Shown: positions 2,466 through 63,999 of the stretch, piece after piece
Position numbering within the stretch: the first letter of the stretch is position 1
Layout: every line of letters begins with the position of its first letter
Translations under genes and position numbers: made by a program
The notes under the pieces: generated by a model
What the model was told of the DNA's origin: nothing
What the model saw: the letters and a program-made list of their open reading frames with translations, nothing else
Database searches by the model: none
IMG/VR virus record: IMGVR_UViG_3300021139_000002
Location: 1-64,000 of that record
Direction: 5' to 3' (one strand)
DNA length: 64,000 nucleotides
Origin: a virus

Positions 2466-2520
2466 AGCGGCCTTTTACGTCATTCAACCCGCTTTATAAA
2501 TTCTGCATGTCGTCAAACTT
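2466..2520 (+). ncRNA. Candidate cis-regulatory pseudoknot (preQ1-I riboswitch-like) in queD leader
   Basis: Stem AGCGG/CCGCT followed by TTATAAA; loop TTTACGTCAT partly complementary to downstream ATGTCGTCAAA. Confidence 0.4.
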
Positions 2521-2544: not shown

Positions 2545-3051
2545 ATGGCAAATTTACAACCAGTACAATATAAGTATACTTCAACAAAAGAATATCACGA
2601 TGCATTTCCATGTGCATACCGCCAATGGCGTGCCGATAGCCATTGCAATCTAATTCATGGCTATTCGTTTAGTATGAAGTTTTACTTTGGAACCAACGAC
2701 CTTGATGTTCGTAATTGGGCGGCTGACTACGGCGGTTTAAAAGAACTTAAAAAGATTTTAGAAGACCAATTCGATCATACACTTATTGTAGCCGCGGATG
2801 ATCCAGAGATGGCGACATTTAAAATGCTACAAGAAAAGAACATGGCCAAGATTGTAGTCTTGCCTAGAATTGGATGTGAAGGTCTTAGTGACATGCTATA
2901 CAAGTATGTAAATGGCGTTTACATTCCCGAAATGTGGGGACCAGGTGAAGCGGCTAGACTTTGGTGCTACCGTGTAGAAGTACGTGAAACACAATCAAAT
3001 ATGGCTTATTGTGAAGGTCACAGAGAATGGAATGAGGATCTATTTGCGTAA
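2545..3051 (+). CDS. queD: 6-carboxy-5,6,7,8-tetrahydropterin synthase (QueD/PTPS family)
   Basis: CNLIHGY motif, DYGGLK…FDH, VEVRET; AAGGAG SD. Confidence 0.85.
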   Translation: MANLQPVQYKYTSTKEYHDAFPCAYRQWRADSHCNLIHGYSFSMKFYFGTNDLDVRNWAADYGGLKELKKILEDQFDHTLIVAADDPEMATFKMLQEKNMAKIVVLPRIGCEGLSDMLYKYVNGVYIPEMWGPGEAARLWCYRVEVRETQSNMAYCEGHREWNEDLFA

Positions 3052-3205: not shown

Positions 3206-3355
3206 ATGAAAGATAAAGATTGGTTAGACAAAATTAGTGTTGCTTATAAATCGTTTCCTTACCCAAATATAAACATTGAATTTTTTATACTTTGGCTCTA
3301 TAGGCAATACGGAATTGTTCCTCCTGAAGAACGAAAGAAAAAGGATAAAGAATGA
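3206..3355 (+). CDS. Small hypothetical protein
   Basis: Hand-translated 49-aa ORF filling the gap; ATGA overlap with the next gene. Confidence 0.5.
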
Positions 3356-4287
3356 AAAAGATTTTAGTAACAGGTGGCGCTGGCTTCTTAGGAAGTCATC
3401 TCTGCGAACGTTTAGTTAAAGAAGGGCACCATGTACTTTGTGTTGATAATTATTTTACAGGTAGTAAAAAGAATATTGAACACCTGCTCGACTATAAAAA
3501 CTTCGAAGTTATTAGACAAGATATTTGTTTACCATTGTATGTTGAAGTAGACAAAATTTATAATCTTGCTTGTCCAGCAAGTCCATATTACTATCAATGG
3601 GATCCAATCCAAACGATGAAGACCAGTGTTATTGGTTCTTATAATATGCTAGGATTAGCAAAACGCACCGGTGCTAAGATTCTACAAGCATCAACTAGTG
3701 AATGCTACGGTGATCCAACCGTACATCCACAGCCAGAATCATATTGGGGTAATGTAAACCCAATCGGTATTCGTAGTTGCTATGATGAAGGCAAACGTGC
3801 CGCAGAAACGTTATTCATGGACTACTATCGCACACACAATGTTAAGGCCAAAATTGTCCGTATTTTCAACACATATGGACCTAAAATGTCACAAAATGAC
3901 GGCAGAGTTGTCAGTAATTTTGTGGTTCAAGCACTACAAGGCAAAGACATTACTATCTACGGAGACGGTATGCAAACCCGTAGTTTCTGTTATGTCGATG
4001 ATCTTTTGGATGCTATGCAGGCACACATGAATCATCCAGATGACAATTTCATTGGACCTGTTAACATTGGTAATCCAGGAGAGTTCACCATGTGGGAATT
4101 AGCACACAAGGTAATTGAGCTAACTAATAGTAAGAGTCAACTCCTACAGATGCCTCTTCCTCAAGATGATCCAAAACAACGTCGCCCGGATATTACATTA
4201 GCAAAGAAAATGCTCAACTGGGAACCTAAAATTAATTTGGAACAAGGTTTAATTAAAACTATAGATTATTTCCGTACCGTGGTATAA
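3352..4287 (+). CDS. UDP-glucuronate decarboxylase (UDP-xylose synthase, extended SDR)
   Basis: [42 protein letters not shown]. Confidence 0.92.
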
Positions 4288-5105
4288 TGAAATTTAGAAT
4301 TAATAATAAAGAAACGTTTTTTAATCAATTTGTTGCGTTAAAAATAACGTATCTTCTATGCGGCATATACTCTTTAGCAACACTACCTATAGAGTATTGG
4401 TACTATCCTATTATAGGTTATGTATGCCTTGCCTCATCTTATATTATTAGTCATGCATACTTTGGACACGAACAATATCAAGTTAACAAGATAGGAAAAA
4501 TTGTACTGGCATTTATAACAACAATCGGTGCAGTTAGTCCTGTTATATTCTGGAAATCCCTACACTGGTATCATCACACCTATCCTGATACTGAAAAGGA
4601 TATCCATAGTCCTAAGACAGGATTTTTAAATTCTTTTATTCTATGGTATTATAAGGCATCTAGTTTTGATAAAGTCATGGTCGATAAAAGAACCGTTGCT
4701 GTATATCTGCGAGCAATGAAGGATCCTGTTATAGCATTTTTCTCAAAATATACGGTGGCCATTAACCTTGTCTTTGTTTTAATATTGCTTTTAATAAATT
4801 GGCATATTCTAATGTATGTATATTTTGCAGGATATGTCCTCGATCATATCAGAAGTGGACTTGTTAATTCTGTATGCCATATGAAATTCCCTGGTAATTA
4901 TAGGAATTTTAATACAAACGATGATAGCCAAAATAATCTATTAATAGGTATAGTCTCGTTTGGATTTAGTTGGCACAATAACCATCATGCGCTCCCGCAA
5001 CAATTAGATACAAAAGTAAAATGGTGGGAATGGGATATGCAATATTATTTGGGCAGATTAATCATGGCAATCTTCCCCGTTGACAAAAATGAAAAACAAG
5101 TGTAA
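4287..5105 (+). CDS. Membrane fatty-acid desaturase (delta-9-like)
   Basis: His boxes HAYFGH, HWYHH, HNNHH; DIHSP; TM segments. Confidence 0.85.
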   Translation: MKFRINNKETFFNQFVALKITYLLCGIYSLATLPIEYWYYPIIGYVCLASSYIISHAYFGHEQYQVNKIGKIVLAFITTIGAVSPVIFWKSLHWYHHTYPDTEKDIHSPKTGFLNSFILWYYKASSFDKVMVDKRTVAVYLRAMKDPVIAFFSKYTVAINLVFVLILLLINWHILMYVYFAGYVLDHIRSGLVNSVCHMKFPGNYRNFNTNDDSQNNLLIGIVSFGFSWHNNHHALPQQLDTKVKWWEWDMQYYLGRLIMAIFPVDKNEKQV

Positions 5106-5691: not shown

Positions 5692-6723
5692 ATGGTAATA
5701 AAACGTCTGGGATTCGCGTGTAAGTGGATTGATCATGCAGGTCAGGTTGACGGCATCAAACCCAATGACGATGCTAAACAATACAATACCGGCTCCACTA
5801 CCGTTGCATGGTTAAATAGACAAACAAAAGATGTAGCAGAACAAAAGCTATGGGACCTAATGGTAGCCAATATCGAGTCTGTTCGAAAACTTGTCGATCG
5901 TGTAGGAGCACTTGATGAAAATCTTAGAATGGTACGACTCGGTAGCGATATCCTACCTGTCTATACTCAGTCAGATTGGAGCTGGTTTTGGCGGCTTCCC
6001 GATACTAGAGCATATTGCGAAAAAGGATTTAGAGCCGTGGGAGATCTGGCTCGTGAGAGGGGCGTTAGGCTCTCTTTTCATCCTGGGCAGTTTTGCGTGT
6101 TGGCATCTGATAACCCAGATATTGTAGATCGTAGCATAGAGGAGTTTGAATATCATGCAGATATGGCCAGGTACATGGGATACGGTAAGTCGTTTCAGGA
6201 CTTTAAAATCAACGTCCACATTGCGGGTAGAGCCGGTACAGAAGGCGTCCGACAAGCCTACAAAAGACTCTCGCCCGAAGCAAGAAATTGTATCACAATC
6301 GAAAACGAGGAAATAAGTTATGGCTTGGATGATTGCCTTGAGTTGGCTGATGTCGTTCCTATCGTATTGGATATTCATCACCATTGGTGTAAGACAGGAG
6401 AATACATCTCCGCCATGGACCCCCGTGTTGATCGGGTCATTCAGTCTTGGCGTGGGGTTCGCCCTACTTGCCACTATTCTGTTAGTCGCGAAGATTGTCT
6501 TGTCGGTCATGACCCTATGATTCCACCTAACAAGGCTCAATTGTTACAAGAAGGTTATAAATTGCAAAAGCTCAGAGCACATTCTAACTTCTACTGGAAT
6601 ACAGCAGTAAATGAATGGGCACTGAGCTTTCTACACAGATTCGATATTATGGCCGAATCTAAAGCCAAAAATTTAGCCAGCTTTGAACTGGCTAAACAGG
6701 CAAAAAGATTAAACCTTATTTGA
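5692..6723 (+). CDS. uvsE: UV-damage endonuclease (UvsE/UvdE)
   Basis: LGFAC, RLSFHPGQF.VL.S, INVH, IENEE, LDIHHH, RAHS. Confidence 0.92.
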   Translation: MVIKRLGFACKWIDHAGQVDGIKPNDDAKQYNTGSTTVAWLNRQTKDVAEQKLWDLMVANIESVRKLVDRVGALDENLRMVRLGSDILPVYTQSDWSWFWRLPDTRAYCEKGFRAVGDLARERGVRLSFHPGQFCVLASDNPDIVDRSIEEFEYHADMARYMGYGKSFQDFKINVHIAGRAGTEGVRQAYKRLSPEARNCITIENEEISYGLDDCLELADVVPIVLDIHHHWCKTGEYISAMDPRVDRVIQSWRGVRPTCHYSVSREDCLVGHDPMIPPNKAQLLQEGYKLQKLRAHSNFYWNTAVNEWALSFLHRFDIMAESKAKNLASFELAKQAKRLNLI

Positions 6724-8864: not shown

Positions 8865-9830
8865 ATGGCATCTACAATCACAAATTTAATCAACACTATT
8901 AATGTTGCATTTCCTGTCGCAGGGCAAGACAACGATAGTCAAGGGTTCAGAGATAATTTCAACATTATTCAACAATCGCTTCTAGCAACAGAAAGCGAAA
9001 TTGAAAATATTCAAAATACGGTCAACACATTAGGTGGTAGTGTTTATAGCACAGCTACACACATCGTTGCATTACAAGATGTATCTATTGGAACTGCAAC
9101 AAATGTTGTATTGAGTGTAGATCAAGGTACTGGAGACTTAATTATTACAGGTGATTCAGCATCGGGAGTTGTAGTAACATTATCCGAACAGGTTACTGCT
9201 ACGGTTGTAAATGCGTTAACTGATTCTGTAACTAACTCAACTACAGGAACATTCGGAGTGCAAGATGTTAAGAACATATTAACAGGTGCAACCGTTTATT
9301 TCCAAAGTCAAACACGTACGGTAACTAGCGTAGATCATAGTACAAATTATATCACCGTTACTCCAGAATTTACGGTTCCTCCGTTTAGTGTAGGGACTAT
9401 TTTAACATTCCAAAATCCGTACAATAACCCAGTTGGCAACTTGTATATCACTGGTGATATCTTTGCTTCAGGAAATATTACCGCGTATGCAGGTGCTCCA
9501 TCTGATGCAAGACTTAAAGAAAATGTTGTTACCATTACAGATGCACTTTCTAAAGTCAACTCGATGCGTGGTGTATTTTATGATTGGACTGACAGCTATC
9601 TTGAAATGCTTAACTTCTCTCCGTTGTTACCAAAACACGATACAGGCGTTATAGCACAAGAAGTACAAGAAGTTGTACCGGAAATTGTTTTCATGAAATC
9701 AAACGGTGATTTGGGTGTTAAGTATGAAAAACTTGCTGGATTCTTTATTGAAGCCATTAAAGAATTAAGTGCAAAAGTTGATACATTACAAGCTCAAGTA
9801 AATGCATTAACTACAGGCACCAATGTTTAA
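8865..9830 (+). CDS. Tail fibre/spike-like protein with C-terminal intramolecular chaperone (peptidase S74)
   Basis: SDARLKENV, GVIAQEV..V.PE.V, V.YEKL…EAIKEL; TAAATA 8829. Confidence 0.85.
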   Translation: MASTITNLINTINVAFPVAGQDNDSQGFRDNFNIIQQSLLATESEIENIQNTVNTLGGSVYSTATHIVALQDVSIGTATNVVLSVDQGTGDLIITGDSASGVVVTLSEQVTATVVNALTDSVTNSTTGTFGVQDVKNILTGATVYFQSQTRTVTSVDHSTNYITVTPEFTVPPFSVGTILTFQNPYNNPVGNLYITGDIFASGNITAYAGAPSDARLKENVVTITDALSKVNSMRGVFYDWTDSYLEMLNFSPLLPKHDTGVIAQEVQEVVPEIVFMKSNGDLGVKYEKLAGFFIEAIKELSAKVDTLQAQVNALTTGTNV

Positions 9831-11135: not shown

Positions 11136-11403
11136 AACAATGCAGGGTAAAGTTATCGATATGGAAAAATTAATGCAACAGAACGAGTTGACACCTGCTG
11201 TAGGAAATGCTAAAATGAATGCTAGAGGTGACAAGTTAGGTGCTGGTGGCAAGATTGTTCAAACTAGAGAAGAAATTGTCGCAGAGTATTACGAAACAAA
11301 TCCAAAGGCTGCTAAAGCAAATAAAGCACCAGCGGTTCAAACTATCGTAGAAGAACCTGTTGCACCTGTAAAAAATAAAAATAACCCACAGGGAACTAAA
11401 TGA
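11125..11403 (+). CDS. Conserved hypothetical protein
   Basis: AVGN.KMNARGD.LG.GG motif; AAGGAG SD. Confidence 0.7.
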   Translation: MVYKTMQGKVIDMEKLMQQNELTPAVGNAKMNARGDKLGAGGKIVQTREEIVAEYYETNPKAAKANKAPAVQTIVEEPVAPVKNKNNPQGTK

Positions 11404-11741
11404 AAGTTGAAGGAACTATTGTCCCGTTACGCAATATGATTATTGCTAGCGATATGGAATTTGGAAACGAAACGTTAAAAAGCGGACTCATAGTCCTAAG
11501 CGATAACGGTAAAACTAGAGGTATTCGCCCTCGCTGGTGCAAGGTATTTGCTGTAGGACCAGAACAAACAGATGTAACAATTGGTCAATGGGTCTGTGTA
11601 GAACACGGACGTTGGGGACGGACTATCGAACTTGATGTTGGAGAAGACGATCCTATTGAACTCAGAGTCATCGATCCTAATGCTGTCATGATGATTGCAG
11701 ACGAAAAACCAGACGATGTAACTCTTATCAAGAAAGACTAA
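11400..11741 (+). CDS. groES: GroES-like co-chaperonin
   Basis: PLRNMII, mobile loop KSGLIV, VFAVGP, V.IGQ.V. Confidence 0.75.
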   Translation: MKVEGTIVPLRNMIIASDMEFGNETLKSGLIVLSDNGKTRGIRPRWCKVFAVGPEQTDVTIGQWVCVEHGRWGRTIELDVGEDDPIELRVIDPNAVMMIADEKPDDVTLIKKD

Positions 11742-21808: not shown

Positions 21809-22336
21809 ATGCTAGATATAATTAAATTTCCCAATGAAGTATTACGACAAAAAGTCGAAGAGTTCGATTTTGAAAACTGCATCCTTGATCCAGAAAAACT
21901 AGAAGCAGAATTAATCGAAACTATGTTTGCACACGACGGCATCGGTCTTGCCGCAACACAAGTAGGAATAACGGTGCGTGTGTTTGTTATGGGTCATAAA
22001 GATAACCCAGAATCAGCACAAGCATTTTTTAATCCTATTGTGGTTAAGTGGACCGACGAAGTAGAAGATCTGGAGGAAGGATGTTTGAGTTTTCCAGGGA
22101 TGTATGCTAACATTAAACGTCCTAAGAAAATATTAGCCCGTTGGCAAAACTCAAAAGGAGAATGGCAAGAATCAGAATTTGATGGATACAACTGCAAGTG
22201 TTTTTTACATGAGTTAGATCATTTAGAAGGCATCGTATTTCAAGATCGGGTCAGTCCCTTAAAATGGGCAATGGCTGTTAAAAAGTCTAAACCCAAAAAA
22301 GTTAAAGTTATAAAAGTAAAAAGGAAATTCAAGTAA
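21809..22336 (+). CDS. def: Peptide deformylase
   Basis: GIGLAATQVG, EGCLS, HELDH. Confidence 0.95.
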   Translation: MLDIIKFPNEVLRQKVEEFDFENCILDPEKLEAELIETMFAHDGIGLAATQVGITVRVFVMGHKDNPESAQAFFNPIVVKWTDEVEDLEEGCLSFPGMYANIKRPKKILARWQNSKGEWQESEFDGYNCKCFLHELDHLEGIVFQDRVSPLKWAMAVKKSKPKKVKVIKVKRKFK

Positions 22337-24603
22337 TGTTGGAACCAGATAAAGATTTAGAAAAAATCTTTGAACATGCTGTTCAAGTAGCGTCAATTAA
22401 TAAACACGAGTATGTTACTTTGGAGCATTTCTTACTCAGTATGCTGAGTAACGATTCTTTCGTTAAACTATTAGAAGCGTTCGGTACAGACATAAAACCT
22501 TTTAAAGAAGATATCGAAAATTTCATTGCCAATGAATTGAAAGATATTGTTAACGATTCTGCCAACAAACCTAAAAAGACCGCAAGCGTTGATCGCATGT
22601 TGAACCGTGCCTTTACACAGGTATTGTTCAGTGGTCGTCAAATTATCGAGCCCGTAGATTGTTTTATCAGTATCTTCGGTGAAAGAAAAAGCCATGCTAG
22701 TTTCTTTATTAAAAAAGCAAAGATTGACAAAGATAGTTTTGTTAACTTTGTTAAGAAAGAAATTATTAAAGATGAAGAAACAGAAGAAACTACGATCAAT
22801 CCTCAAATTGAGAGAATGATCTTACAATTCTGTACAAACCTTAGTGCTCGTGCTAAAAGCAAAAAGATCGATCCAGTTATTGGCCGTGAAAAAGAGATTG
22901 AAGAAATTCAACTTGTACTTGCACGCCGAACAAAATCTAATGCGATTCTTATCGGTGATCCGGGTGTAGGTAAGACTGCTATTGCAGAAGGTCTTGCACG
23001 TAACATCTTTGAAGACAAGGTTCCTAAATTTATTAAAGAACATACGGTCTATAGTTTAGATATTAGTGCATTGCTAGCTGGTTCTAAATACCGTGGAGAC
23101 TTTGAAGAAAGGCTTAAAGCTGTACTAGCCGGACTTGAGAAAAAAGGCAAGTGTATCCTGTTCATCGACGAAGCACATATGATGAATGGTGCAGGTGCTG
23201 TAAGTGGCGGTAGCAATGATATGGCCAATATGCTTAAGGCTGCATTGTCAAAAGGTACTATTAAAGTCATTGCATCAACTACTTGGGAAGAATATCGTAA
23301 ACACTTTGAAAAGGATCGCGCCCTAATGCGTCGATTCCAACGTGTTGTTATTGATGAGCCTTCAGAAGCAACTGCTATTAAGATTATCAAAGGTCTCAAG
23401 AAGTATTACGAAAAACATCACGGTGTTAAAATCACTAACCAAGCAGTTATTGATAGTGTTAAGTATTCTGTCAAATATCTTAGCGATAAGAAATTGCCAG
23501 ACAAGGCCATTGACTTAATCGATTGTGCCTGTGCCCGATTCAAGGTACGTGACGAAGAGGGTGGCATTGTTGACCATGAAGAAATCTTGTTTGAAATTGC
23601 TAAGATGGCCAATATTCCAATTGAGACAATCAATAGCAAAGAAACAAGCAACCTTCCTAATCTTGAAAAGAATATGAAGGCCAAAGTCTACGGACAGGAA
23701 AAAGCAATCGAAAGTCTGTTAGACAAAGTGTTTATTGCACAAGCAGGTTTGAAGTCGCCTACTAAGCCAATCGGTAGTTTCTTATTTGTTGGTCCTACAG
23801 GTGTTGGTAAGACTGAAGCCGCTAAACAACTTGCCAGTAACCTAGGCATTAAGTTGATCCGCTTTGATATGAGTGAATATCAAGAAGCTCATAGTGTTGC
23901 TAAGTTTATCGGTAGCCCTCCCGGTTATGTTGGTTACGAAGATAACGCTGGTCAATTGATTACTAGCCTACAAGAAAACCCAAATTGTGTTCTATTGTTG
24001 GACGAAGTTGAAAAAGCTCACCCTAGTGTTCTAACTATTATGCTTCAATTGATGGATAACGGATTTGTTACAGGTTCAAATGGTAAGAAAGCTGATGCTC
24101 GCAATGCAATCGTTATTATGACATCAAACTTAGGTGCCGCTGATGCTGAGAAAAATAGTGTAGGCTTTGGCAACTTAGAACGTGACGGTGATCCTAAAGA
24201 TGCTGTCAACAAGTTCTTTGCTCCTGAGTTCCGTAACCGATTAGATGGTATGATTCGATTCGGCAAGTTAGACAACGATACAATGATCAAGATTGTTAAG
24301 AAGTTTATCGACGAACTTAATGCTCTTGTTAAGGATAAAAACGTTCATGTTAAACCTAATGCAGATGCTGTAGAGTATTTGATTAAGAAAGGGTTTGACA
24401 GCAAGATGGGCGCTCGTCCGTTGCAACGTACTATCGACGATATGATCAAACGTCCCCTAAGTAAGGAAATCTTATTTGGAAAACTTACAAACGGTGGTGT
24501 TGTTGAAATTACGGTTGAAGACAATGCATTGAAACTTAATGTCATTGACATTTTGCCAGTAGAAAAGGCAAAAGATGCAGTACAAGAAGCAGATAACACA
24601 TAA
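22336..24603 (+). CDS. clpA: ATP-dependent Clp protease ATP-binding subunit ClpA
   Basis: Two AAA modules ([16 protein letters not shown]), no M-domain, VGF ClpP-docking loop. Confidence 0.92.
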
Positions 24604-42481: not shown

Positions 42482-42724
42482 ATGGCACAACCCGCCTACA
42501 TTCAAAAAACCCTTCGTATGAAACCCGAAGTCGAAAAAATCTTCGATGACCTCGATGCATGGCTTGACCATTGCCGTTTCAACCTGTTGGATTTTAATCC
42601 AGCAGACTTGTATCGCTCGCAAGAGTATCGATACTTTGCCAATCGCGGCAAACCACGCGAAGGATACAAGGGTAAAAATCCTCGTTACGAGAATCGAAAC
42701 AATGGCGAACGTTTTTCTCGTTGA
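42482..42724 (+). CDS. Hypothetical protein
   Basis: IFDDLD…CR…F.PADLY; AGGA SD. Confidence 0.7.
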   Translation: MAQPAYIQKTLRMKPEVEKIFDDLDAWLDHCRFNLLDFNPADLYRSQEYRYFANRGKPREGYKGKNPRYENRNNGERFSR

Positions 42725-43775
42725 TCTTGAAAGCGTAGAAACAAGGTACACGGGTCAATGGAAGGCCCATGTACCTAATCTACTTTCAAAAGCAGGACAT
42801 AATGTTCAAGTTATATCTGGCCCTACTGATATCCCTAGTGCTACTACCCCTGGTGCTTTTCTTAATTTTGGCGGCACCAATATCTACAAAGCAAATCAAG
42901 TCGAGCAGATTGGACGGTTATTTTGCTCCGGAGCAGTTAAACCTGGCGATCATTTTTTGTTTACTGACGCTTGGCATCCTGGCATCATTAATTTAAAGTA
43001 CATGAGTCAATTACTAGGCATCCCAGTAATTACACATGGACTATGGCATGCCGGGTCATACGACCCTCAAGACTTTTTAGGTCGTCTTGTTGGAGATACT
43101 CCTTGGGTTAGACATGCTGAAAAGAGTTTCTATCATTCGTTTGATCATAATCACTTTGCTACAGAATTTCACATCGAGATGTTCTGTAAAAATTTGTTAG
43201 ATTATGTAAACTCAGATGTTGTTCGTCAATTTGCACCAACTAAAATTGTACGCACAGGTTGGCCAATGGAATATATGGTTGATACACTTTCTTCATACAA
43301 GGGTATGAATAAACGAGATCTAATCTTGTTCCCACATCGCATCGCACCTGAAAAACAAGTCGATATTTTCCGAGACTTAAAAGAACACTTATCACAATAC
43401 GAGTTTGTTGTATGTCAGGATCAGCAACTAACTAAAAATGAATATCATAATTTGTTAGGTGAAGCAAAACTGGTATTCAGTGCAAACTTGCAAGAAACAT
43501 TGGGTATCAGTTGGTACGAAGGTGCTATTGTAGGTGCTATTCCAATGGTGCCAGATCGTTTAAGTTATAGCGAAATGGCATTTGATACATTTAAGTATCC
43601 TAGTGCGTGGACTGAAAATTTTAATTCATACGCATTTCATAGGCCGGAATTATGCAGTAAAATTATCCAATACATGGATAATTATGAAAAATTCTTACCT
43701 ACGTTGAATAAGCAGGTCGATTCTTTAACTGAAAATTTCTTTAGTGCAACTACATTGGTGGAGATGATTAAATGA
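42702..43775 (+). CDS. GT-B glycosyltransferase (GT4-like)
   Basis: FPHR..PEK, QETLGISWYEG (ExxGxxxxE), P.VPDRLSY.E. Confidence 0.8.
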   Translation: MANVFLVDLESVETRYTGQWKAHVPNLLSKAGHNVQVISGPTDIPSATTPGAFLNFGGTNIYKANQVEQIGRLFCSGAVKPGDHFLFTDAWHPGIINLKYMSQLLGIPVITHGLWHAGSYDPQDFLGRLVGDTPWVRHAEKSFYHSFDHNHFATEFHIEMFCKNLLDYVNSDVVRQFAPTKIVRTGWPMEYMVDTLSSYKGMNKRDLILFPHRIAPEKQVDIFRDLKEHLSQYEFVVCQDQQLTKNEYHNLLGEAKLVFSANLQETLGISWYEGAIVGAIPMVPDRLSYSEMAFDTFKYPSAWTENFNSYAFHRPELCSKIIQYMDNYEKFLPTLNKQVDSLTENFFSATTLVEMIK

Positions 43776-44236
43776 AATGGTTATTAAATACACTCGAGCG
43801 TTTAGGTCGTAAACGTGTTGTGATGGATAGAATTAACGATGAACCTTATCTTGAACGTTATTACCTTTTTCTTAAAGATAGAAAGCGGTTCCCTTTCAAT
43901 ATGTTTCTTCACCGTTTCCTTAAGTCAGATCCCGATGATGTGCATGATCATCCATGGCCTTACGCTACACTTATCTTAAAAGGTGGTTATTATGAATGGA
44001 CTCCTATATTCGACGGAGAAAACAAAAAAATCGGAGAAGTACGAAAATGGAAGGGCGCTGGACACTTTCGTACTTGTAGTGCTCGCTCTTATCATCGTAT
44101 TGAGCTTGACCCTAGCGTAGAATGCTGGACATTGTTTATGCCTGGTCCACAAACCCGTGAATGGGGATTCTTATACAAGAATAAGTGGATGCACAACGAC
44201 GAATATCTTAAAGGTCGAGCTGAGAGAATTTTGTAA
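43772..44236 (+). CDS. Cupin-fold metalloprotein
   Basis: HDHPW…GGY.E and YHRIEL…WTLF. Confidence 0.75.
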   Translation: MKWLLNTLERLGRKRVVMDRINDEPYLERYYLFLKDRKRFPFNMFLHRFLKSDPDDVHDHPWPYATLILKGGYYEWTPIFDGENKKIGEVRKWKGAGHFRTCSARSYHRIELDPSVECWTLFMPGPQTREWGFLYKNKWMHNDEYLKGRAERIL

Positions 44237-45245
44237 TTCTCTGATCATCTTCATTAATGCAGGAAATCATTCCGCATTTTTGAGGACCTTGAGGGGGCAT
44301 CCATCCAGGATGCCATATATTGCCTAATGCAATGTTATTGCAATTACTGCCGGATACCCAACCTTGTCCGCCTATATTCAATCTTTCAACTCCAGCATTA
44401 CATAGTTGTCCTACGTAACTAGGATGCTTACTATAGGTATCTTCATACCTTTCATCCCAAGTAGTTTCTTGAAAGTAAATCTTTTCTTCTACTAATTTAC
44501 TTGTCTCCACGGGCGGTGGCGGTGGCGGTGGTGGGGGAGGAGGTTCCGGAGGCGGTGCTTCTGCTAGTCTACGTCGCATTTCTTCTTCGCGACGTTTTTG
44601 TTCTTCAATACGTTTTGCACGTTCTTCTAAAGTACGTTGACGCATTTCTTTAGACATGTTATAAAAATCAATTTTTTGCAAATCTTCGTATGAATATTTG
44701 AGCATACCTGCACTAGGATCTGCATTAAAATACAATTGAGTTTTCGAAACCAACATATCAATTGTATCTTCTAACTCAAGCACTCTATCAATATCTTCTT
44801 GTACATTGGTATTTCTTATAGGCGCACTAATTGTAAATTTTTTACCTTTGGCATTAAATGTATCTACAATATATTTTATCAATGCAGGATTTTGCCAATG
44901 GTGATATGTTAGCACTAAGTTATCTACATACGGTTCTAACGCCCACCAATCTAACCAAAGTTTACCGCCATTAGTATGTAGTGTAACACTATCGCCGTTT
45001 GCTCTACATAATTTTAAAAATTGAGCAATATAATCCATATCTAACGGTTCGCCGCCGTTAAAAATCCATTCTATACTTCTGCCCTGTTTCTCTTTATAAG
45101 AATCTATAAGTAATTGAGCAATACGTAGATATTCGTTTATTTCGGGAGGAAGGCCGCCTCCCCTAGAATGAGTTGGACAATACTCACATTGGGCTTTGCA
45201 GTAATCGTTTAATGTCCAAGATATAATTGTTTTTAAATTGTCCAT
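44208..45245 (-). CDS. Radical SAM enzyme with Cys-rich C-terminal (twitch-like) domain and poly-Pro insert
   Basis: CKAQCEYC, GGEP, TNG; C-terminal C.AG…C…C….C. Confidence 0.85.
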   Translation of the reverse strand: MDNLKTIISWTLNDYCKAQCEYCPTHSRGGGLPPEINEYLRIAQLLIDSYKEKQGRSIEWIFNGGEPLDMDYIAQFLKLCRANGDSVTLHTNGGKLWLDWWALEPYVDNLVLTYHHWQNPALIKYIVDTFNAKGKKFTISAPIRNTNVQEDIDRVLELEDTIDMLVSKTQLYFNADPSAGMLKYSYEDLQKIDFYNMSKEMRQRTLEERAKRIEEQKRREEEMRRRLAEAPPPEPPPPPPPPPPPVETSKLVEEKIYFQETTWDERYEDTYSKHPSYVGQLCNAGVERLNIGGQGWVSGSNCNNIALGNIWHPGWMPPQGPQKCGMISCINEDDQRITKFSQLDL

Positions 45246-45250
45246 ACGGT

Positions 45251-45299
45251 CCTTGACAAGTCTAAATAAAGTATGTATAATGTACTTATCTTATCAAGG
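45251..45299 (+). promoter_or_regulatory. Sigma70 + late promoter inside an inverted repeat shared by divergent genes
   Basis: TTGACA 45253-17-TATAAT; TAAATA 45263; CCTTGACAAG / CTTATCAAGG arms. Confidence 0.7.
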
Positions 45300-45305
45300 C
45301 GTACA

Positions 45306-45590
45306 ATGGATTTAGACTCAAAAACTAAAGAAGTAATGGACATTCTACAAGAAGAATGTGCAGAGGTTATACAGGCAGTTAGTAAAATTAGCCGATTTGG
45401 AATTGATAACCTTAAACCAGGCAAACCAAAAACTAATCGAGAACATCTCGAGGAAGAACTCGGAGACATGTTGGCTATGATCGATATCTTAAAAGAAAAA
45501 GGTATCGTGTCCGGCGCTTGTTTAGAAGCAGCCAAATATGCCAAAATTGAAAAACTAAAAAAATGGTCAAACATATATGAGCAAAATTAA
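45306..45590 (+). CDS. mazG: MazG-like NTP pyrophosphohydrolase
   Basis: EECAEV…EELGD motifs. Confidence 0.8.
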   Translation: MDLDSKTKEVMDILQEECAEVIQAVSKISRFGIDNLKPGKPKTNREHLEEELGDMLAMIDILKEKGIVSGACLEAAKYAKIEKLKKWSNIYEQN

Positions 45591-46431
45591 AATCGCAGAA
45601 CTCTTTTACTCAATACAGGGCGAAGGTCGCTATATGGGCGTTCCCTCTGTATTTCTTCGCACCTTCGGGTGTAACTTTAAATGCCAAGGGTTTGGCATGC
45701 CTCGTGGAGAACTTAGCAATGAAGCAGAAAATATTGACCCGTCTAAGTACACCGAGTACAAATCGTTACCTTTGGTTAGTACAGGTTGTGATAGTTACGC
45801 TTCTTGGGATCCTCGCTTTAAGCATCTATCTCCCCTTCTTTCTACTGATGCGATTGCCACTGCTATTGTTGATACGCTACCGTACAAGGAATGGCGGGAC
45901 GAACATCTCGTAATCACAGGCGGCGAGCCATTGCTAGGTTGGCAAAAGCAATATCCAGATTTACTCAATCACGAAAAGATGCGTGGCTTAAAAGAAATTA
46001 CTTTTGAGACAAACGGCACAATGCGTCTAACCTCAGACTTCACACAATTCATAAAAGACTGGGCATGGGATCATGAAAAATCACTAATGCGACAGGTGAC
46101 ATTCAGTGTTAGTGCTAAACTTCCATGTAGCGGTGAGCCATGGAAAGATGCTATTAAACCAGAGGTTGTTAAATCATATCAAGATACTGGTTCATATGTT
46201 TATTTGAAATTTGTTATTAGCACAGAGGAGGACCTTAAAGATGCTGAACGAGCAGTTGAAGAATATCGTGCGGCGGGCTTTACTGGTCCTGTGTACATTA
46301 TGCCTGTTGGTGGCGTTGAACGGGTGTACACTCTTAATAATAGATCAGTAGCAGAGATGGCAATGCGAAAAGGATGGAGGTATTCAGACCGACTTCAAGT
46401 GCCACTATTTAAAAACGAATGGGGAACCTAA
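45577..46431 (+). CDS. queE: 7-carboxy-7-deazaguanine synthase (radical SAM)
   Basis: E.FYSIQGEG..G.PSVFLR.FGCN..C…CDS, TGGEP, ETNG, KFV. Confidence 0.9.
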   Translation: MSKIKIAELFYSIQGEGRYMGVPSVFLRTFGCNFKCQGFGMPRGELSNEAENIDPSKYTEYKSLPLVSTGCDSYASWDPRFKHLSPLLSTDAIATAIVDTLPYKEWRDEHLVITGGEPLLGWQKQYPDLLNHEKMRGLKEITFETNGTMRLTSDFTQFIKDWAWDHEKSLMRQVTFSVSAKLPCSGEPWKDAIKPEVVKSYQDTGSYVYLKFVISTEEDLKDAERAVEEYRAAGFTGPVYIMPVGGVERVYTLNNRSVAEMAMRKGWRYSDRLQVPLFKNEWGT

Positions 46432-57861: not shown

Positions 57862-60800
57862 TTAAGTTCTTCCTGTTAAAATGCTACCATTTTCATCTGT
57901 CAATGGAACACCATTTTGATCTCTTAGTACGATATCACCTTCATAGTAATACGAGTTAGGCAATTCAGTAGGGAATTGTTTCAATTGACCTGCTATCGTT
58001 GTGCTACTTTCCCATAGAGGTAATGTTACACCCGGGCTAACTACCGTATTAAATGTATTACTTAAAGCAGATTTTTTAACAATTGCTAATTCTATATTGC
58101 TTTCGACTACAATATTTAATTGAATAGTTTGTGTGTTATTATGTGCAACGGTAAATTCTTGAGGTAATTCAGTTAAACCAGTATATACCCATCCTGGATA
58201 TTGTACGTTTGTTGATCTATTTCCTACATACTGCCATACTTGACCAGATGATACAAGTATGTAAGCATCATTTAACATTGCTGATTGTGTAGACAGGTCA
58301 CTGGTTGTTCCTTGAATGTACGACTCGTCTATACTATCATATGCAATGGTTGTATCATGTACAAATATAGGAGATTTTCTAAGTTGACGGCCGCCGTAAT
58401 ACACTTCTAATTGATCGTTATATGGTAGAGAATCTACTAATTTAATACCTGCAGATGCAATTGTAGCTGTAGTTCCTGGAACTGGCGAAGTATAAGACGA
58501 AGTACTTATATGATAAACAGAATTTGTAGCCGTAGTAAAAATATATTGAATACTTACCGCTTCTGGATTTCCAAGAACTTGTAACGTTCCTTGATCAACA
58601 ACCTTCGATCCATATAATAAGTGCGGCGATACTCCAGTTCCGAGTGTACCTCTTGTTATTTCGTCTAATTTATAGCCGCCTGATGCTACGGTAATTTGAT
58701 TAAATTCAATTCTTTCTGCGTTGATCAGCACCACACCAGGTGTAGTTTCAGTAGGAGCAGTAAGAACCGTAGCATCTGCAACATAGATTTCAGTATCATC
58801 AGGCGCTAATGGTTTGGTTAGATATGTTGTATTTGCTTTACTTAATCTAGTAAACGTTGTATGTCCTAACAAGTCATTAAAGATTCTGTAGCCAAGAACC
58901 GTATCAATATATTGGGGACTCTTGAAGCTGATAATTTCTACCGTATCTAAATTTGAAATATTCCAACTATCGCTAATTTGAACCGTAACGTTATCATCTA
59001 ATAAAATGTAATCAATACCGTTTATCAATCCAGAAACCGTATCATTTTGATGTATGATCGAAACCCACATGTAGATATCATTGCTAACAGGTCTGTTCAT
59101 AATGAATCGCCTGTTTGGATTTCCTACAAAGTTTTCTATGTCAACGCCCATCTTACCTGTAGTGTCTATAAAAGTAACAACTTTAATTAAATCACCGGGG
59201 TTCAAATGTACAGAAATTGTTAGTGTAGACCCAACAATTGTGTATTCGTTCTTAGAAGTCAATAGTCTATTAGCAACTCCATTAACAATTTTTTCTACAA
59301 TATAATCACCTTCCACATTTAATGTAAACGTAGTCATCGAAGAAGTAGAAGAAGCAACAAATTGTTGATCAATTATTTGATTAAAATTACTATGAGATTC
59401 TGTAAAGAACCAGGCTTGGACAGCATTACCTTGAGATGAATCTAACCCGTTAACGGTGACTACAGCAGGTCCTCGATTATTTGCAGAAACATCTAGAACA
59501 TAATCAGATGTAGGAATTCCGTTAACCGTTACGTATACATCTTTTACAATATTAGCAAGATATCCACTGCTAACAATACCAACTGAGCTGTTTGTTGTAA
59601 TAACAGATTCGCTGTCAATTAATCCAAAATTGTTTGTGCCGCCTCCAACACCCACCATGCTGTAACTTAATTTTCCAGACGATACTTGAGGCGGAATTAT
59701 TAATCGTTGTCCTACCCAATCAATTTCAAAACTAAGAGCGCCAGGCATTATTGGCGCACACTCTAATATAGTACCGTTTAGGATAACAGAAATACTATCA
59801 ACCGTAACCGGCAACATAGGTAACGGATAATATTGCAAATCAGCACTAGGAGAAACATCAAAATATCCTGTTACTATTGTAGGTGCTTGAGCAGGACCTT
59901 GTGTATATACGTTAATTCCTAGCGTATCAATTGCAAAACCTGGAAGTAATTCTTCAGGTGCGTGACCAGATGCTGTGTTAATAAAACCTAACTCGCCACT
60001 TAATGTAATATCTTCAGGATTAGTTCCTAATGCAGATACTCTACCATCTGCATTCCAGGTACCACCTTCAATATTGCTATAAGGGTAAACACCGCCATAC
60101 GGGTTTACAAATCTTTGACCGTCGACTAAGGTACCTGGATAACTTATTCCATCCATTAAGACCGTTAGGTCGAGACCAATCATGCCGTTTGTAGCCGTAT
60201 AATATGCCAGTATGCGATCAGTTGCATTAAGAATGTCTGCACTCTTCTTATACTTAATTGTAATTGTTGCATTATTTGCAGGAGCATTATTAACAAAAAC
60301 AAGTTTAGCAAACTTTTTAGAATAACCGTTATAAGGTTGTTCATAATAATCAATAGTCCATTCACTACTTAAGGAAATGACGCTGTTTATTTTTACAGAA
60401 ATTCCTGTTTTATTAAATGCAGGAACCCAACCTAAAACAAACTCAGATGTAATACCGTCTGCTATGAATGTATCAACTACTTCAAATCCACCAGATTGTC
60501 CTACATAACTAGTCCTATCAAATTTTAATTCAATAGTAGAAACTCTGTCTTGTTCGATAATATCAGTGTATGTAGGCTCTAACACTGAATATTCAGTTGT
60601 AAAGTTTCTAATCTGCGTATGATAAGGTTTAACTTCGTTGATATAATCTTCAAAGAAAGAACTATCGTTTAATTTATACACAGGAGGCTGATACAATTCA
60701 CCAGATGTATTTGTTACATTGATGAATGATGTTTTAAAAGCCCAATCTAAAAGTTTTTGTTCTGTTAAAGCGTACTTAACTGCCTTGAAGAACAACAGGT

Positions 60801-63800
60801 TCCAATTTATTTTTAGCTCGTTAATAAACAAATCGTTCTTCAATGCTTTAATAATGTATTCAAGTTCTGTGTCAGGTGTTTGATCATACAATGTTTGATC
60901 ATAGGTATTAAGATTATCCCAATTTAGCAAGCTGTTTGAAACATCCCAAATATCACTATTAAACTGGATTGTTCCATTTTGTTTATAGACTAAATCGTAT
61001 CCATCTCCATAACTACCTAAGACACCATCGGCGGCTTTTCTTAGCACAATATAATTGCCGTCACCGCCATTGTTAACTTTAACATATTGGCCTTCGACCG
61101 TAGATACAGAACTAAGTTCATAAGGACTACCGATGACCGCAGTATAAATTTGATATTGATTATAATCTACACTTGCATAGTCAACATAGTCCCAATACAA
61201 TGTTGTATCATAGCTTTGTGTATGGGCCCTGTTCCAAGAATAGGTTACATAATCCCATTCGTATTGAGACCACTTACCATTATAAGTATCATCACTTTGT
61301 ACAATAACCGTTTGAGGACGAGCAATTAATCTAAATTTAGAACTGAATCCGTTACCAGGATGTATAATTGATGCACTTATGATGCTACCGTGTTCGTTGA
61401 CAACGGTTTTCATTTCAAATCCAGAACTATATGTATTAGGAACATCGCGGGTAAGGAAACGAGTTCTTAAATCATCAAACGTAGTCGTTGCATTGTCGAA
61501 TATAGTTTCATACAAGTCGTTAGCAATAGTAAATGTAGGTCCTTCGTAACCAATAACGGTCCCTGTTGAACTATATACAGGATTTAGTGTTCCATATCCG
61601 TATCCAGCATCTGCAATTTGTACAAGCTCAATAGATCCATTTGCATTTGGTGTGCAGTTAATTATAGCCTGTCTATATCCAGATGTATCAATTGATGTTA
61701 AAGATGCATTATCTTCTACCAAATTATCGTATGTATTCCCGTATTGGTTAGGAATTTCTTCCTGTGCATTTAAGTTTTTAAAACTATACTTGCCAGTAAC
61801 AGGAATATTAATTAAAACATTATTTGAAAATTCAATAATATTTCTTAATGCCGCATGTCTATCGTTAAACATTGTTTGACGAGGACGAACTGATGTTCCG
61901 TAACGTGTTCTTTCAGATAATGCAATATCAGGAACTATGTTACCAAACTTGTCATGACCTAACAAGCTATCTATCAGTTTCTGTTCAAGACTTAACGGTG
62001 GCATGTTAACTGCATCGCCTTCTTGAAGCAATTTCCATTGAGTGTGTCTCGGTGTAACTACAGAAGAACTAGAAGAATCTTGTGCAATATTAATACTGAT
62101 AGTATTTCCTACTGGAATATTTCCTACGTTGCTCAACATAATAGCATCTTTTGAAATAATAGATGCAAAACTTAAACCATAAGCTGATGGATCTGCAATA
62201 GCAGATGCTACTGCATACGAACTTAGTCGTCTATCTTTATGTAAAGGTACCGTTACTTTATTCTTAACCCAGAAATAATAAACATTACTAAAAGTATTTG
62301 TTATTGTATCGTAAACTTGCTTAACAGAAATAACACTATTATCAACAAACTTAGGCTGACCACTAATTCCTTTTGCAAGACCTGCTGGAGTATCCGCAAT
62401 AGCTGCCCAAGCACTAGGCAACATTGTAGAGCTTACCCATTCATATACGTCGATGGTTGCTCCTGGGAATAATTTACCCCAATTGTTTTTACGATATTCA
62501 AGGTCTCCTTGTTCATACCAAACGTATTTGGCTGTACTCAAATCCCACCATAATTCGCCAACATGGTCATCTAACCAATTTTTGTCTGTGTTGTTATTTG
62601 TTCCAGCAACACCAATAGAGTAAATTGCAGGATCGCTGATAAGTTTATATGTTAACTCTTGTTCTGCAATGCCTGGAATCTTACCTTTCAGAGGATCAAA
62701 CAGATCTAGATAGTTAATTATTTTTTCTTTTTCAGTATCAATAATTGCTATTCTACTTATAGGACTGATATCAGTAAACGTATCTTGTTCTACAATTTTG
62801 CTTAGACTATTTGTGGTTGTATCAATTTTATCAAATACAAAGAATCCAGATGAGATACTAGTATTGTCAATTGCAGGAGCACCAGCAATTACTTCAGTAT
62901 CGTCAACGACAATAGATTTTGCAAAATTATTACCATGAGTCGTTAAAATATAAGAATCAGTTAGTTCTTGACTATATACAAACCTAGCAGACTTTTTGTA
63001 ATAAACATAGATAGTTCCTGATCCTACTTCAGTTCCTTTTATCTTTGTAATATTGCCGTCAAACGTCATATTACTACTATCAAATGTTGTGTTTAATGTA
63101 CGATTAATACCGGTTGCAGAAACAATCAGTGTATCATTTCCTATTGTAATATCCATCGAAGAACCAAAGTGCATACCTTGCCCTGCTACAGGATTATATA
63201 ATGTTTGATCTAAAACAAATGTACCATTAACATTTTTATATACTGAAACTTGCCCGTACGATCCGTCAGCATTACCTACAAACATATACGTGCCATCAGG
63301 GCTAACATTAATAGAAGTATTAGCAATATTAATTGTTTGAATGTTGGTTAAAGATTTGTTATAAATTTTAACCAAATCACCATTACCAATTGCAATAATT
63401 GTTGCATCTTCGGAACCAGACAAGGCAGTAATGTTTAATTCAGATGCTACCTTTGACAGATATGTTACTGATATAGTTCCCCCATTGTCTTTAATTTCAT
63501 ATGCATATACTGCATTATTTGCACCAATCAATACAAGTTTATTTTTTGTATTTCTTTCAACAAAAATAAATTTTCCAAAATTAGTCGAGTTATTGTAATC
63601 TGGGTTTCCTACATAAGCAAATACACCTTCTGAGAATATATTTGTATTAATGGAACTTATTTTTACAATACCATGAGTTACTAATGGAGCACCTACAAAT
63701 ACCAATCCGTATCTTGTTCCAGTAAAAGGAGTATCATCATAAACTATCGTACTGCCGAAACCGGTAGGTACATAAGAATAACTTGTACCAATTCTCCATC

Positions 63801-63999
63801 TAGCTATTTCTTGGTATGAACCGTCAGCTTTTTCATATAAACGACAAATTCCGTAGTATAAAGAATTATAATTAACAGGATCGCCTACGACCAATACATT
63901 ATCGCCTTTTCTCTTGCTGATTGCATATCCAAGTTGTTCGTGTGAAGATAATGACAATGTAGGAGTTGTATTATAATTATTAATTTTTTCGTATACCTC
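57862..63999 (-). CDS. Very large virion structural (baseplate wedge-like) protein, 5' end beyond window
   Basis: >2000-aa frame open to the window edge; FG-GAP-like propeller repeats (VGAP, FG..I); YINEVKPYHT. Confidence 0.75.
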   Translation of the reverse strand, partial: EVYEKINNYNTTPTLSLSSHEQLGYAISKRKGDNVLVVGDPVNYNSLYYGICRLYEKADGSYQEIARWRIGTSYSYVPTGFGSTIVYDDTPFTGTRYGLVFVGAPLVTHGIVKISSINTNIFSEGVFAYVGNPDYNNSTNFGKFIFVERNTKNKLVLIGANNAVYAYEIKDNGGTISVTYLSKVASELNITALSGSEDATIIAIGNGDLVKIYNKSLTNIQTINIANTSINVSPDGTYMFVGNADGSYGQVSVYKNVNGTFVLDQTLYNPVAGQGMHFGSSMDITIGNDTLIVSATGINRTLNTTFDSSNMTFDGNITKIKGTEVGSGTIYVYYKKSARFVYSQELTDSYILTTHGNNFAKSIVVDDTEVIAGAPAIDNTSISSGFFVFDKIDTTTNSLSKIVEQDTFTDISPISRIAIIDTEKEKIINYLDLFDPLKGKIPGIAEQELTYKLISDPAIYSIGVAGTNNNTDKNWLDDHVGELWWDLSTAKYVWYEQGDLEYRKNNWGKLFPGATIDVYEWVSSTMLPSAWAAIADTPAGLAKGISGQPKFVDNSVISVKQVYDTITNTFSNVYYFWVKNKVTVPLHKDRRLSSYAVASAIADPSAYGLSFASIISKDAIMLSNVGNIPVGNTISINIAQDSSSSSVVTPRHTQWKLLQEGDAVNMPPLSLEQKLIDSLLGHDKFGNIVPDIALSERTRYGTSVRPRQTMFNDRHAALRNIIEFSNNVLINIPVTGKYSFKNLNAQEEIPNQYGNTYDNLVEDNASLTSIDTSGYRQAIINCTPNANGSIELVQIADAGYGYGTLNPVYSSTGTVIGYEGPTFTIANDLYETIFDNATTTFDDLRTRFLTRDVPNTYSSGFEMKTVVNEHGSIISASIIHPGNGFSSKFRLIARPQTVIVQSDDTYNGKWSQYEWDYVTYSWNRAHTQSYDTTLYWDYVDYASVDYNQYQIYTAVIGSPYELSSVSTVEGQYVKVNNGGDGNYIVLRKAADGVLGSYGDGYDLVYKQNGTIQFNSDIWDVSNSLLNWDNLNTYDQTLYDQTPDTELEYIIKALKNDLFINELKINWNLLFFKAVKYALTEQKLLDWAFKTSFINVTNTSGELYQPPVYKLNDSSFFEDYINEVKPYHTQIRNFTTEYSVLEPTYTDIIEQDRVSTIELKFDRTSYVGQSGGFEVVDTFIADGITSEFVLGWVPAFNKTGISVKINSVISLSSEWTIDYYEQPYNGYSKKFAKLVFVNNAPANNATITIKYKKSADILNATDRILAYYTATNGMIGLDLTVLMDGISYPGTLVDGQRFVNPYGGVYPYSNIEGGTWNADGRVSALGTNPEDITLSGELGFINTASGHAPEELLPGFAIDTLGINVYTQGPAQAPTIVTGYFDVSPSADLQYYPLPMLPVTVDSISVILNGTILECAPIMPGALSFEIDWVGQRLIIPPQVSSGKLSYSMVGVGGGTNNFGLIDSESVITTNSSVGIVSSGYLANIVKDVYVTVNGIPTSDYVLDVSANNRGPAVVTVNGLDSSQGNAVQAWFFTESHSNFNQIIDQQFVASSTSSMTTFTLNVEGDYIVEKIVNGVANRLLTSKNEYTIVGSTLTISVHLNPGDLIKVVTFIDTTGKMGVDIENFVGNPNRRFIMNRPVSNDIYMWVSIIHQNDTVSGLINGIDYILLDDNVTVQISDSWNISNLDTVEIISFKSPQYIDTVLGYRIFNDLLGHTTFTRLSKANTTYLTKPLAPDDTEIYVADATVLTAPTETTPGVVLINAERIEFNQITVASGGYKLDEITRGTLGTGVSPHLLYGSKVVDQGTLQVLGNPEAVSIQYIFTTATNSVYHISTSSYTSPVPGTTATIASAGIKLVDSLPYNDQLEVYYGGRQLRKSPIFVHDTTIAYDSIDESYIQGTTSDLSTQSAMLNDAYILVSSGQVWQYVGNRSTNVQYPGWVYTGLTELPQEFTVAHNNTQTIQLNIVVESNIELAIVKKSALSNTFNTVVSPGVTLPLWESSTTIAGQLKQFPTELPNSYYYEGDIVLRDQNGVPLTDENGSILTGRT

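Follow-up and report, generated by a model that had tools for sequence, protein, structure and literature searches.

Riboswitches of the preQ1-I class (RF00522), among which those of B. subtilis queC, T. tengcongensis, and E. coli types I-III are considered here, are small H-type pseudoknots that start the mRNAs of que genes. Their architecture combines a 5-bp, G-C-closed P1 with an invariant C at the L2/P1 junction, an A-rich L3 that follows P1 and leads directly into the P2 3' strand, and a short P2 (3-4 bp) formed by loop nucleotides and a downstream strand; the SD is located in or next to P2, or P2 precedes a terminator, and the element is an OFF switch. To our knowledge, it is from cellular genomes that the known riboswitch classes have been defined, the copies found in phages being mostly borrowed ones. 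Leader pseudoknots and hairpins are also familiar from phage T4, where they serve as protein operators (e.g., of gene 32, gene 43, and regA). Here we describe the leader of a queD-like gene of an uncultured lake phage, which carries a strongly conserved, phage-restricted pseudoknot that apparently controls queD and most likely represents a new riboswitch class with a preQ1-I-like shape and ON logic. A literature search on queD, preQ0, or 7-deazaguanine riboswitches of phages found no paper describing the motif.

The window analysed here (64,000 nucleotides) covers the initial 64 kb of a viral contig of 106 kb that comes from an uncultured freshwater virus. Its genes include those for a DNA polymerase of the T4 type, a clamp loader, and ClpP (1573-2193); a 755-aa AAA+ 'ATP-dependent protease' (phrog_4871) is encoded at 22336-24603, and an ORF that exceeds 2,045 aa and is open-ended occupies 57862-63999 on the minus strand, in a region of lower G+C (0.34). 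A gene for a QueD/PTPS-like protein (168 aa, CxxxHGY; PF01242, 1.8e-14; phrog_2389 'QueD-like', 2.5e-35) is located on the plus strand at 2545-3051 and has a leader of 80 bases. It is directly followed by a nucleotide-sugar epimerase/dehydratase-like gene (3352-4287) and a gene of the fatty-acid-desaturase family (4287-5105); a UvdE UV-endonuclease gene is found at 5692-6723. A sigma-70-type promoter on the plus strand at 2429-2457 (TTGACA at 2429-2434, a 17-nt spacer, and TATTAT at 2452-2457; 11 of 12 matches) predicts a transcript start at about 2464-2467, within a few bases of 2466. The first-pass annotation had placed a preQ1-I-like pseudoknot just after the predicted start of transcription.

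The letters and positions quoted in that annotation (AGCGG, CCGCT, and TTATAAA) are borne out by the sequence. On the plus strand, AGCGG (2466-2470) forms the 5' strand of P1 and pairs with CCGCU (2489-2493), with which it covaries in relatives; the loop between the two strands comprises 18 nt (2471-2488), and TTATAAA directly follows CCGCT. Within this loop, L1 (2471-2476) consists of N-C-U and a U-rich spacer of variable length, with C2472 and U2473 invariant in relatives, and is followed by the 5' strand of P2b, ACGUCAU (2477-2483), by U2484 and the 5' strand of P2a (2484-2486), and by a junction (the true L2, 2487-2488) made up of a variable nucleotide and an invariant C2488 that abuts P1. 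Downstream of P1, L3 (UUAUAAAUUC, 2494-2503; family consensus N-U-A-Y-A-A-A-Y-U-C) is an A-rich tail that would be expected, by analogy with H-type pseudoknots, to lie in the P1 minor groove. The 3' strand of P2 (2504-2513) then supplies U2504 and G2505, which pair with A2486 and C2485 in P2a, C2506, which forms a conserved mismatch with U2484, and AUGUCGU (2507-2513), which completes P2b. An imperfect pairing of loop and downstream nucleotides had indeed been anticipated, and ACGTCAT (2477-2483) does match ATGTCGT (2507-2513) with a single U.U mismatch (U2480.U2510); a TTT/AAA extension of P2 that had been part of the same proposal (2474-2476 with 2515-2517) is not conserved by relatives.

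When the window leader was folded as a single sequence, its MFE was no better than that of shuffled sequences (z = 0.26), as would be the case for a chance inverted repeat without function; this test is uninformative, however, because the fold is a pseudoknot. We therefore turn to relatives. A protein-based search for queD-like relatives yielded more than 590 viral contigs, and the leaders of the best 80 of these were conserved, with compensatory variation. A second scan, which used a DNA pattern of the conserved core and made no reference to genes, gave at least 120 matches, which lie almost only upstream of QueD-type ORFs belonging to at least four divergent subfamilies. At least 263 motif instances, at least 145 of them distinct, were parsed from uncultured phage contigs, and parse failures were very few (194 instances out of about 200 loci). 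A covariance model (R1) that was built from other phages only, with the window left out, finds the window copy at 2463-2518; the score is 38.3 bits and the E-value, for 1.04 Mb searched, is 8.5e-6. It has no second match anywhere in the 64-kb window.

Both helices covary in the three alignments that were evaluated, as had been asked of related queD leaders when the pseudoknot was first proposed. In a gapless alignment that was fitted to no structure (A2; 39 sequences, P1 and P2), 94.1% of the modelled positions were paired, as compared to 35-54% when the partners were slid, and double changes were seen at 8 of 10 pairs; the covariation score of this alignment was reached by none of 500 shuffles. 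The corresponding values were 91.8%, 36-52%, and 9 of 10 for a model-aligned set of 90 distinct sequences (A3), and 92.4%, 34-45%, and 9 of 12 for 68 sequences aligned over an extended P2 (A4), where covariation figures, here and below, count sequences rather than independent events, many contigs being closely related. Pairing in P1 (100% in A2 and A4, 99.8% in A3) is in part high by construction, as the parser demanded a paired P1; in P2, double changes occur among relatives at each of the five pairs modelled. P1 occurs as AGCGG/CCGCU, AGAGG/CCUCU, AGUGG/CCACU, ACCGG/CCGGU, UGCGG/CCGCA, and UCCGG/CCGGA, with pairs that alternate between AU/UA, GC/CG, and CG/AU/UA below two invariant top G-C pairs, while P2 variants include GGCA/UGCC, GACGC/GUGUC, GGCAU/AUGCC, AUGGCAU/AUGUCAU, GGCG/CGCC, GACUU/AAGUC, and GGGC/GUCC. 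G.U pairs are frequent, and the structure therefore belongs to the sense RNA strand. An alignment-free comparison of loop/downstream complementarity within a sequence and between sequences gave a significant but small effect (z = 4.5), small because the P2 variants are all GC-rich look-alikes, and was replaced by the register-anchored pair counts given above. The H-type pseudoknot proposed for this leader is thus real and conserved, and we regard it as almost certain that it is a functional structured RNA. A chance inverted repeat, for which the unremarkable fold energy had spoken, is refuted by hundreds of instances, by compensatory changes, and by a constant genomic position, and its probability is negligible.

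With regard to the junction between the two helices, the pair equivalent to A2486:U2504 is AU in 42, GC in 25, and another combination in 1 of the A4 sequences. Since this pair covaries to G:C, P2 continues past the conserved U2484.C2506 mismatch, and the true P2/P1 junction consequently comprises only two nucleotides, a variable base and C2488. Three protein-derived sequences with CUCCGC instead of CUCUGC in L3 carry UCG.C instead of UCA.C in L2. A scan for the C variant of L3 that allowed either A or G at the L2 base put this to the test, and the base was G in 63 of 64 true instances with C in L3. In the distinct instances with U in L3 it is A in all 128, both counts referring to the matches listed. 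This L2-A/L3-U pair is apparently undescribed, at least in that we have not seen it described. The position of C2488 is occupied by C in 131 of 131 distinct aptamers, even though it was left free in both searches. Further invariant bases are the C-U of L1, the U-C-A that precedes this C in L2, the U-C-U-G-C that ends L3, and the top two G-C pairs of P1; they cluster at the P1/P2 junction, while the helices vary. A 5' leader that combines covarying helices with invariant unpaired nucleotides is what a riboswitch would be expected to show, and the invariant junction, judged from its sequence, may be likened to a binding pocket, in which C2488 is a candidate ligand-pairing base, presumably the counterpart of C17 in the preQ1-I aptamer of B. 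subtilis.

The association of the motif with queD is close and corresponds to the linkage of preQ1-I elements to queuosine/7-deazaguanine genes. Among the matches listed, the first downstream ORF is of the QueD type in 252 of 260 instances with downstream sequence (about 97%) and a QueD-type ORF lies further downstream in one more; in the remaining seven, another ORF is inserted ahead of queD, and these insertions comprise a cupin, members of a 233-243-aa family, a gene that is probably homing-endonuclease-like, and a B12-radical-SAM gene. QueE is located within 3.5 kb of the motif in 51 of these 260 listed instances. The upstream side is more variable: a T4-late-like ATAA[AG]TA box is present in 95 of 198 distinct upstream regions (e.g., L004, L010, L021, and L035), and a strong sigma-70-like promoter in 34, i.e., in the window and 33 others. 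With both promoter types, the box ends 3-12 nt ahead of P1; this placement implies that the element starts at the mRNA 5' end, and the two promoter types imply that one and the same gene is an early gene in some phages but a late one in others. One aptamer is combined with four types of expression platform, as in known riboswitches, as well as with four QueD subfamilies and two promoter types, all mixed combinatorially, such that the element travels with queD and not with a promoter or a phage lineage.

Beyond uncultured phages, the motif was hardly found. A blastn search of the region against cultured phages gave no match, and the motif is absent at the four cultured-phage queD loci inspected (ACP17, X1, Iggy, and Phosso). 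A scan of 185,579 prokaryote species (one genome each) gave 55 raw pattern matches, approximately the number estimated for chance, and a single true motif with queD (L367), on an 8,050-bp contig of a Chitinophagales MAG that is probably a phage fragment binned into this MAG; the contig may hint, if weakly, at a Bacteroidota host.

Some loci depart from the usual arrangement. L087 carries a degenerate second copy of the motif (5-57; 25 bits, E about 0.01), followed by a 300-aa class I methyltransferase-like ORF (68-967) directly upstream of a normal motif and queD. L268 has two full copies on the minus strand (9171-9223 and 11402-11454), one of which precedes an apparent truncated queD remnant and then a 672-aa B12-binding radical SAM ORF, and L285 likewise has two (4107-4159 and 4900-4952), one of them ahead of a 236-aa ORF to which no family was assigned. 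The 233-243-aa ORFs (L138:4432-5160, L285:4181-4888, and L298:1457-2155) have no Pfam match, and two of the three share an N-terminus like NDYxIxxCQEYCKxLPF; as they are located between motif and queD, they are apparently under the same leader. L064 encodes tandem QueD paralogues (1054-1476 and 1480-1992), one with the canonical CxxxHGH and one with the window-type CxxxHGY, and its motif precedes the canonical paralogue. The substitution of Y for H at a presumed zinc ligand may give the window-type QueD an altered activity.

The 3' strand of P2 has a second possible partner. The ribosome binding region of the window (plus strand, 2533-2550) comprises the SD AGGAG (2533-2537), the AUG (2545-2547), and the first codons, and in the MFE fold an anti-RBS strand (plus strand, 2508-2524) competes for it, with UGUCGUC (2508-2514) pairing with GAUGGCA (2544-2550) and CUC (2522-2524) with GAG (2535-2537). 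In the other start-codon platform UGCCAUUG pairs with CAAUGGCA, and in the SD-type platforms CCUAUG pairs with CAUAGG or UGUCU with AGACA; a second partner in the SD or start-codon region is thus available to the P2 3' strand in every platform type, and the two pairings are mutually exclusive. Among 151 leaders folded by MFE, 95% showed this strand paired to the region of the SD and AUG, where a shuffled decamer already reached 59%. The anti-RBS duplex has a mean energy of -9.2 kcal/mol versus -5.8 for P2 and is the stronger of the two in 99% of leaders, these being duplex energies that leave aside tertiary contacts and co-transcriptional folding. Since the anti-RBS helix is the stronger one, the leader should be closed by default, and whatever stabilises the knot would be expected to make the ribosome site accessible; the ON direction is thus a prediction from pairing energies.

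These observations suggest the following mechanism. The first ~50 nt of the mRNA would fold into a compact H-type pseudoknot aptamer with a 5-bp P1, a long interrupted P2, and an invariant junction. In the effector-free leader, the P2 3' strand (2507-2514) would prefer the start-codon region (2544-2550) while the adjacent CUC holds the SD core, and the leader would in this way close its own ribosome site by default. A bound effector, which C2488 would read and which is most likely a small metabolite shaped like guanine, 7-deazaguanine, or a pterin, would stabilise the pseudoknot, retain the P2 3' strand, and release SD and AUG, such that translation of QueD would be switched ON in vivo. We hold with considerable confidence that the element is a translational switch, and we favour, with more reserve, a switch that is worked by a small molecule in the ON direction.

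A switch of this kind could also do without a ligand, for instance as an mRNA 5' stabiliser, a thermometer, or a kinetic timer that sets the level of queD translation. 5' stem-loops are known to protect bacterial mRNAs, the element starts at the predicted +1, and a two-state design could respond to temperature or Mg2+. For a stabiliser, however, a pseudoknot and some 15 invariant unpaired nucleotides would be superfluous, as would a P2 strand that doubles as a partner of the RBS in each of four independent designs of the platform, and we consider a ligand-independent element quite unlikely. The comparative data fit equally well a protein of phage or host that binds the junction and shifts the two-state equilibrium, be it QueD, another enzyme of the pathway, or a T4-type regulator; the phages concerned are T4-like, as indicated by polymerase and clamp loader, and the T4 operators mentioned above provide a precedent. 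Against such a translational operator, the element is tiny, has a densely invariant junction, and is found on four QueD subfamilies that are only 40-50% alike, so that an autoregulating protein would need to have retained a single RNA-binding surface in all of these. We know of no T-fold PTPS/QueD enzyme that binds RNA, and ON wiring would turn autoregulation into positive feedback. A protein operator thus appears unlikely, if still deserving of attention.

The first-pass annotation had also linked the leader to the supply of deazaguanine. This link is made plausible by a QueE-like radical SAM gene in the window (plus strand, 45577-46431; phrog_2076, 3.5e-56), the product of which is 70% identical to the QueE encoded after queD in L138; QueE catalyses the next step of the QueD pathway, and the window gene has no motif upstream, the R1 match at queD being the single one. 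In complete relatives, no convincing QueC above the Pfam cut-off and no TGT-family enzyme were detected (negative or sub-threshold), and Iggy-type DpdA was not found, where a divergent DpdA3/4-type enzyme could escape such a search. FolE is present in three essentially complete relatives (353-383 kb) and in two others at 82-86% completeness, and QueE was matched in all four relatives searched, if weakly in G003 (E = 1.4e-5). In the 106-kb contig itself, searches for QueC, FolE, and TGT found none, and a PRTase is likewise absent. QueD homologues up to about 51% identical are found in deazaguanine clusters of cultured phages (e.g., QueE-QueC-QueD-FolE-DpdA in Iggy), which use QueD for 7-deazaguanine DNA modification.

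The region at 42546-46431 of the window contains a partial 7-deazapurine-type cluster, namely a conserved 409-aa ORF with no assigned family (42546-43775), the gene of a cupin that carries the annotation 'cysteine dioxygenase' (43772-44236), a minus-strand radical SAM gene (44208-45245), and the QueE-like gene; no QueC or DpdA is detectable in it. This region is syntenic with a cluster of the relative G002 that additionally includes FolE and a phosphoribosyltransferase; in one relative, the cluster has the order FolE, cupin, phosphoribosyltransferase, several ORFs without assigned function, and QueE. We take the window cluster to recall the CDG + PRPP nucleoside routes of tubercidin-type pathways. 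Judged from this gene content, the product of the pathway is probably a CDG-derived 7-deazapurine, because phages without QueC can make 7-deazaguanine DNA from CDG (PMC10516641). Candidate ligands are guanine-shaped and include H2NTP (feed-forward), CDG, 7-deazaguanine, preQ0/preQ1, and guanine. For a biosynthetic gene, to be switched ON by a metabolite related to its own pathway would be unusual and needs a rationale, e.g., feed-forward by the substrate H2NTP.

Taking these lines of evidence together, we tentatively propose, as a reading that comes close to being probable, a riboswitch class confined to phages, be it an offshoot of preQ1-I or a product of convergence on it, that would act as a translational ON switch, sense a guanine-shaped metabolite of the pathway (for example dihydroneopterin triphosphate, i.e., the QueD substrate, CDG/7-deazaguanine, or guanine released during infection), and time the production of QueD in lake jumbo phages. 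If true, this would be the first virus-native riboswitch class and the first ON member of the preQ1-I-like fold, and an aptamer so compact and abundant, restricted to phages and reversed in its logic, would indicate that viruses evolve metabolite sensors of their own. It would furthermore provide a handle on a 7-deazapurine or pterin branch with FolE, QueD, and QueE but without QueC or DpdA, which in relatives is next to a phosphoribosyltransferase and which occurs in very common freshwater jumbo phages, and it would offer synthetic biology an ON switch of ~50 nt. The candidate ligands are small in number and can be bought or made with enzymes, so that the question of the ligand is directly testable.

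Among described systems, preQ1-I shares with the phage motif the small H-type pseudoknot at the start of a que-gene mRNA, the 5-bp G-C-closed P1, the invariant C at the L2/P1 junction, the A-rich L3 following P1, a P2 made of loop nucleotides and a downstream strand, and control of translation through P2. The initial reading of the element as preQ1-I-like holds in so far as the 5-bp P1 with two top G-C pairs, the invariant C before the P1 3' strand, and the A-rich L3 are concerned; it fails with regard to the longer P2 with its U.C mismatch, the invariant UCUGC, the reversed wiring, and membership in the Rfam family. Rfam 15 gave no family match over the whole window at gathering scores or over 2380-2620 at E<=10. 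RF00522 in particular, which has a gathering score of 39 bits, had no match at E<=10 on 2380-2620 or in L004 and 20 further relatives, and over the entire 106-kb contig its best matches fall outside this region and score no more than 14.6 bits; conversely, a real preQ1-I example (Cetobacterium, 36.6 bits) goes undetected by the phage model. The phage motif also differs from preQ1-I by a longer L1 with an invariant C-U, by the U-C-U-G-C after L3, by a P2 that spans 6-10 positions (a 2-bp C-G/A-U extension, a U.C mismatch, and 3-7 bp), by an SD outside P2, at least 20 nt downstream, with a P2 3' strand that is anti-SD/anti-AUG and predicts ON, and by its occurrence almost only in uncultured phages. 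A diverged true preQ1-I riboswitch that binds preQ1/preQ0 and represses queD like its cellular counterparts would explain the shared features and the que-gene context, and some variants read AGAGG...CCUCUAUAAAAA, which we take to be close to the B. subtilis preQ1-I aptamer. The absence of cross-detection between window or relatives and RF00522, the opposite wiring, and the complete relatives without detectable QueC, which may hence make no preQ0, render such a riboswitch very improbable.

Other H-type classes (SAM-II/SAM-V, guanidine-III, NAD+-II, fluoride, and preQ1-II/III) resemble the phage motif in having two helices and a ligand-stabilised knot that is coupled to the RBS, and the U-rich L1 of the phage motif could lie in the P2 groove as that of SAM-II does; they differ from it in their conserved nucleotides, whereas the phage motif is associated with queD only and has no Rfam match at E<=10. 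The T4 gene 32 operator, as we understand it, is similarly a 5'-terminal H-type pseudoknot in a T4-like leader with a role in translational control, but presumably nucleates cooperative binding of gp32, represses, is tied to gene 32, and has no junction that is invariant across phage groups. The add adenine riboswitch, finally, has a three-way junction aptamer, unlike the pseudoknot described here, but shares with the phage motif the mutually exclusive folds and an aptamer strand that acts as anti-RBS, with the ligand freeing SD and AUG.
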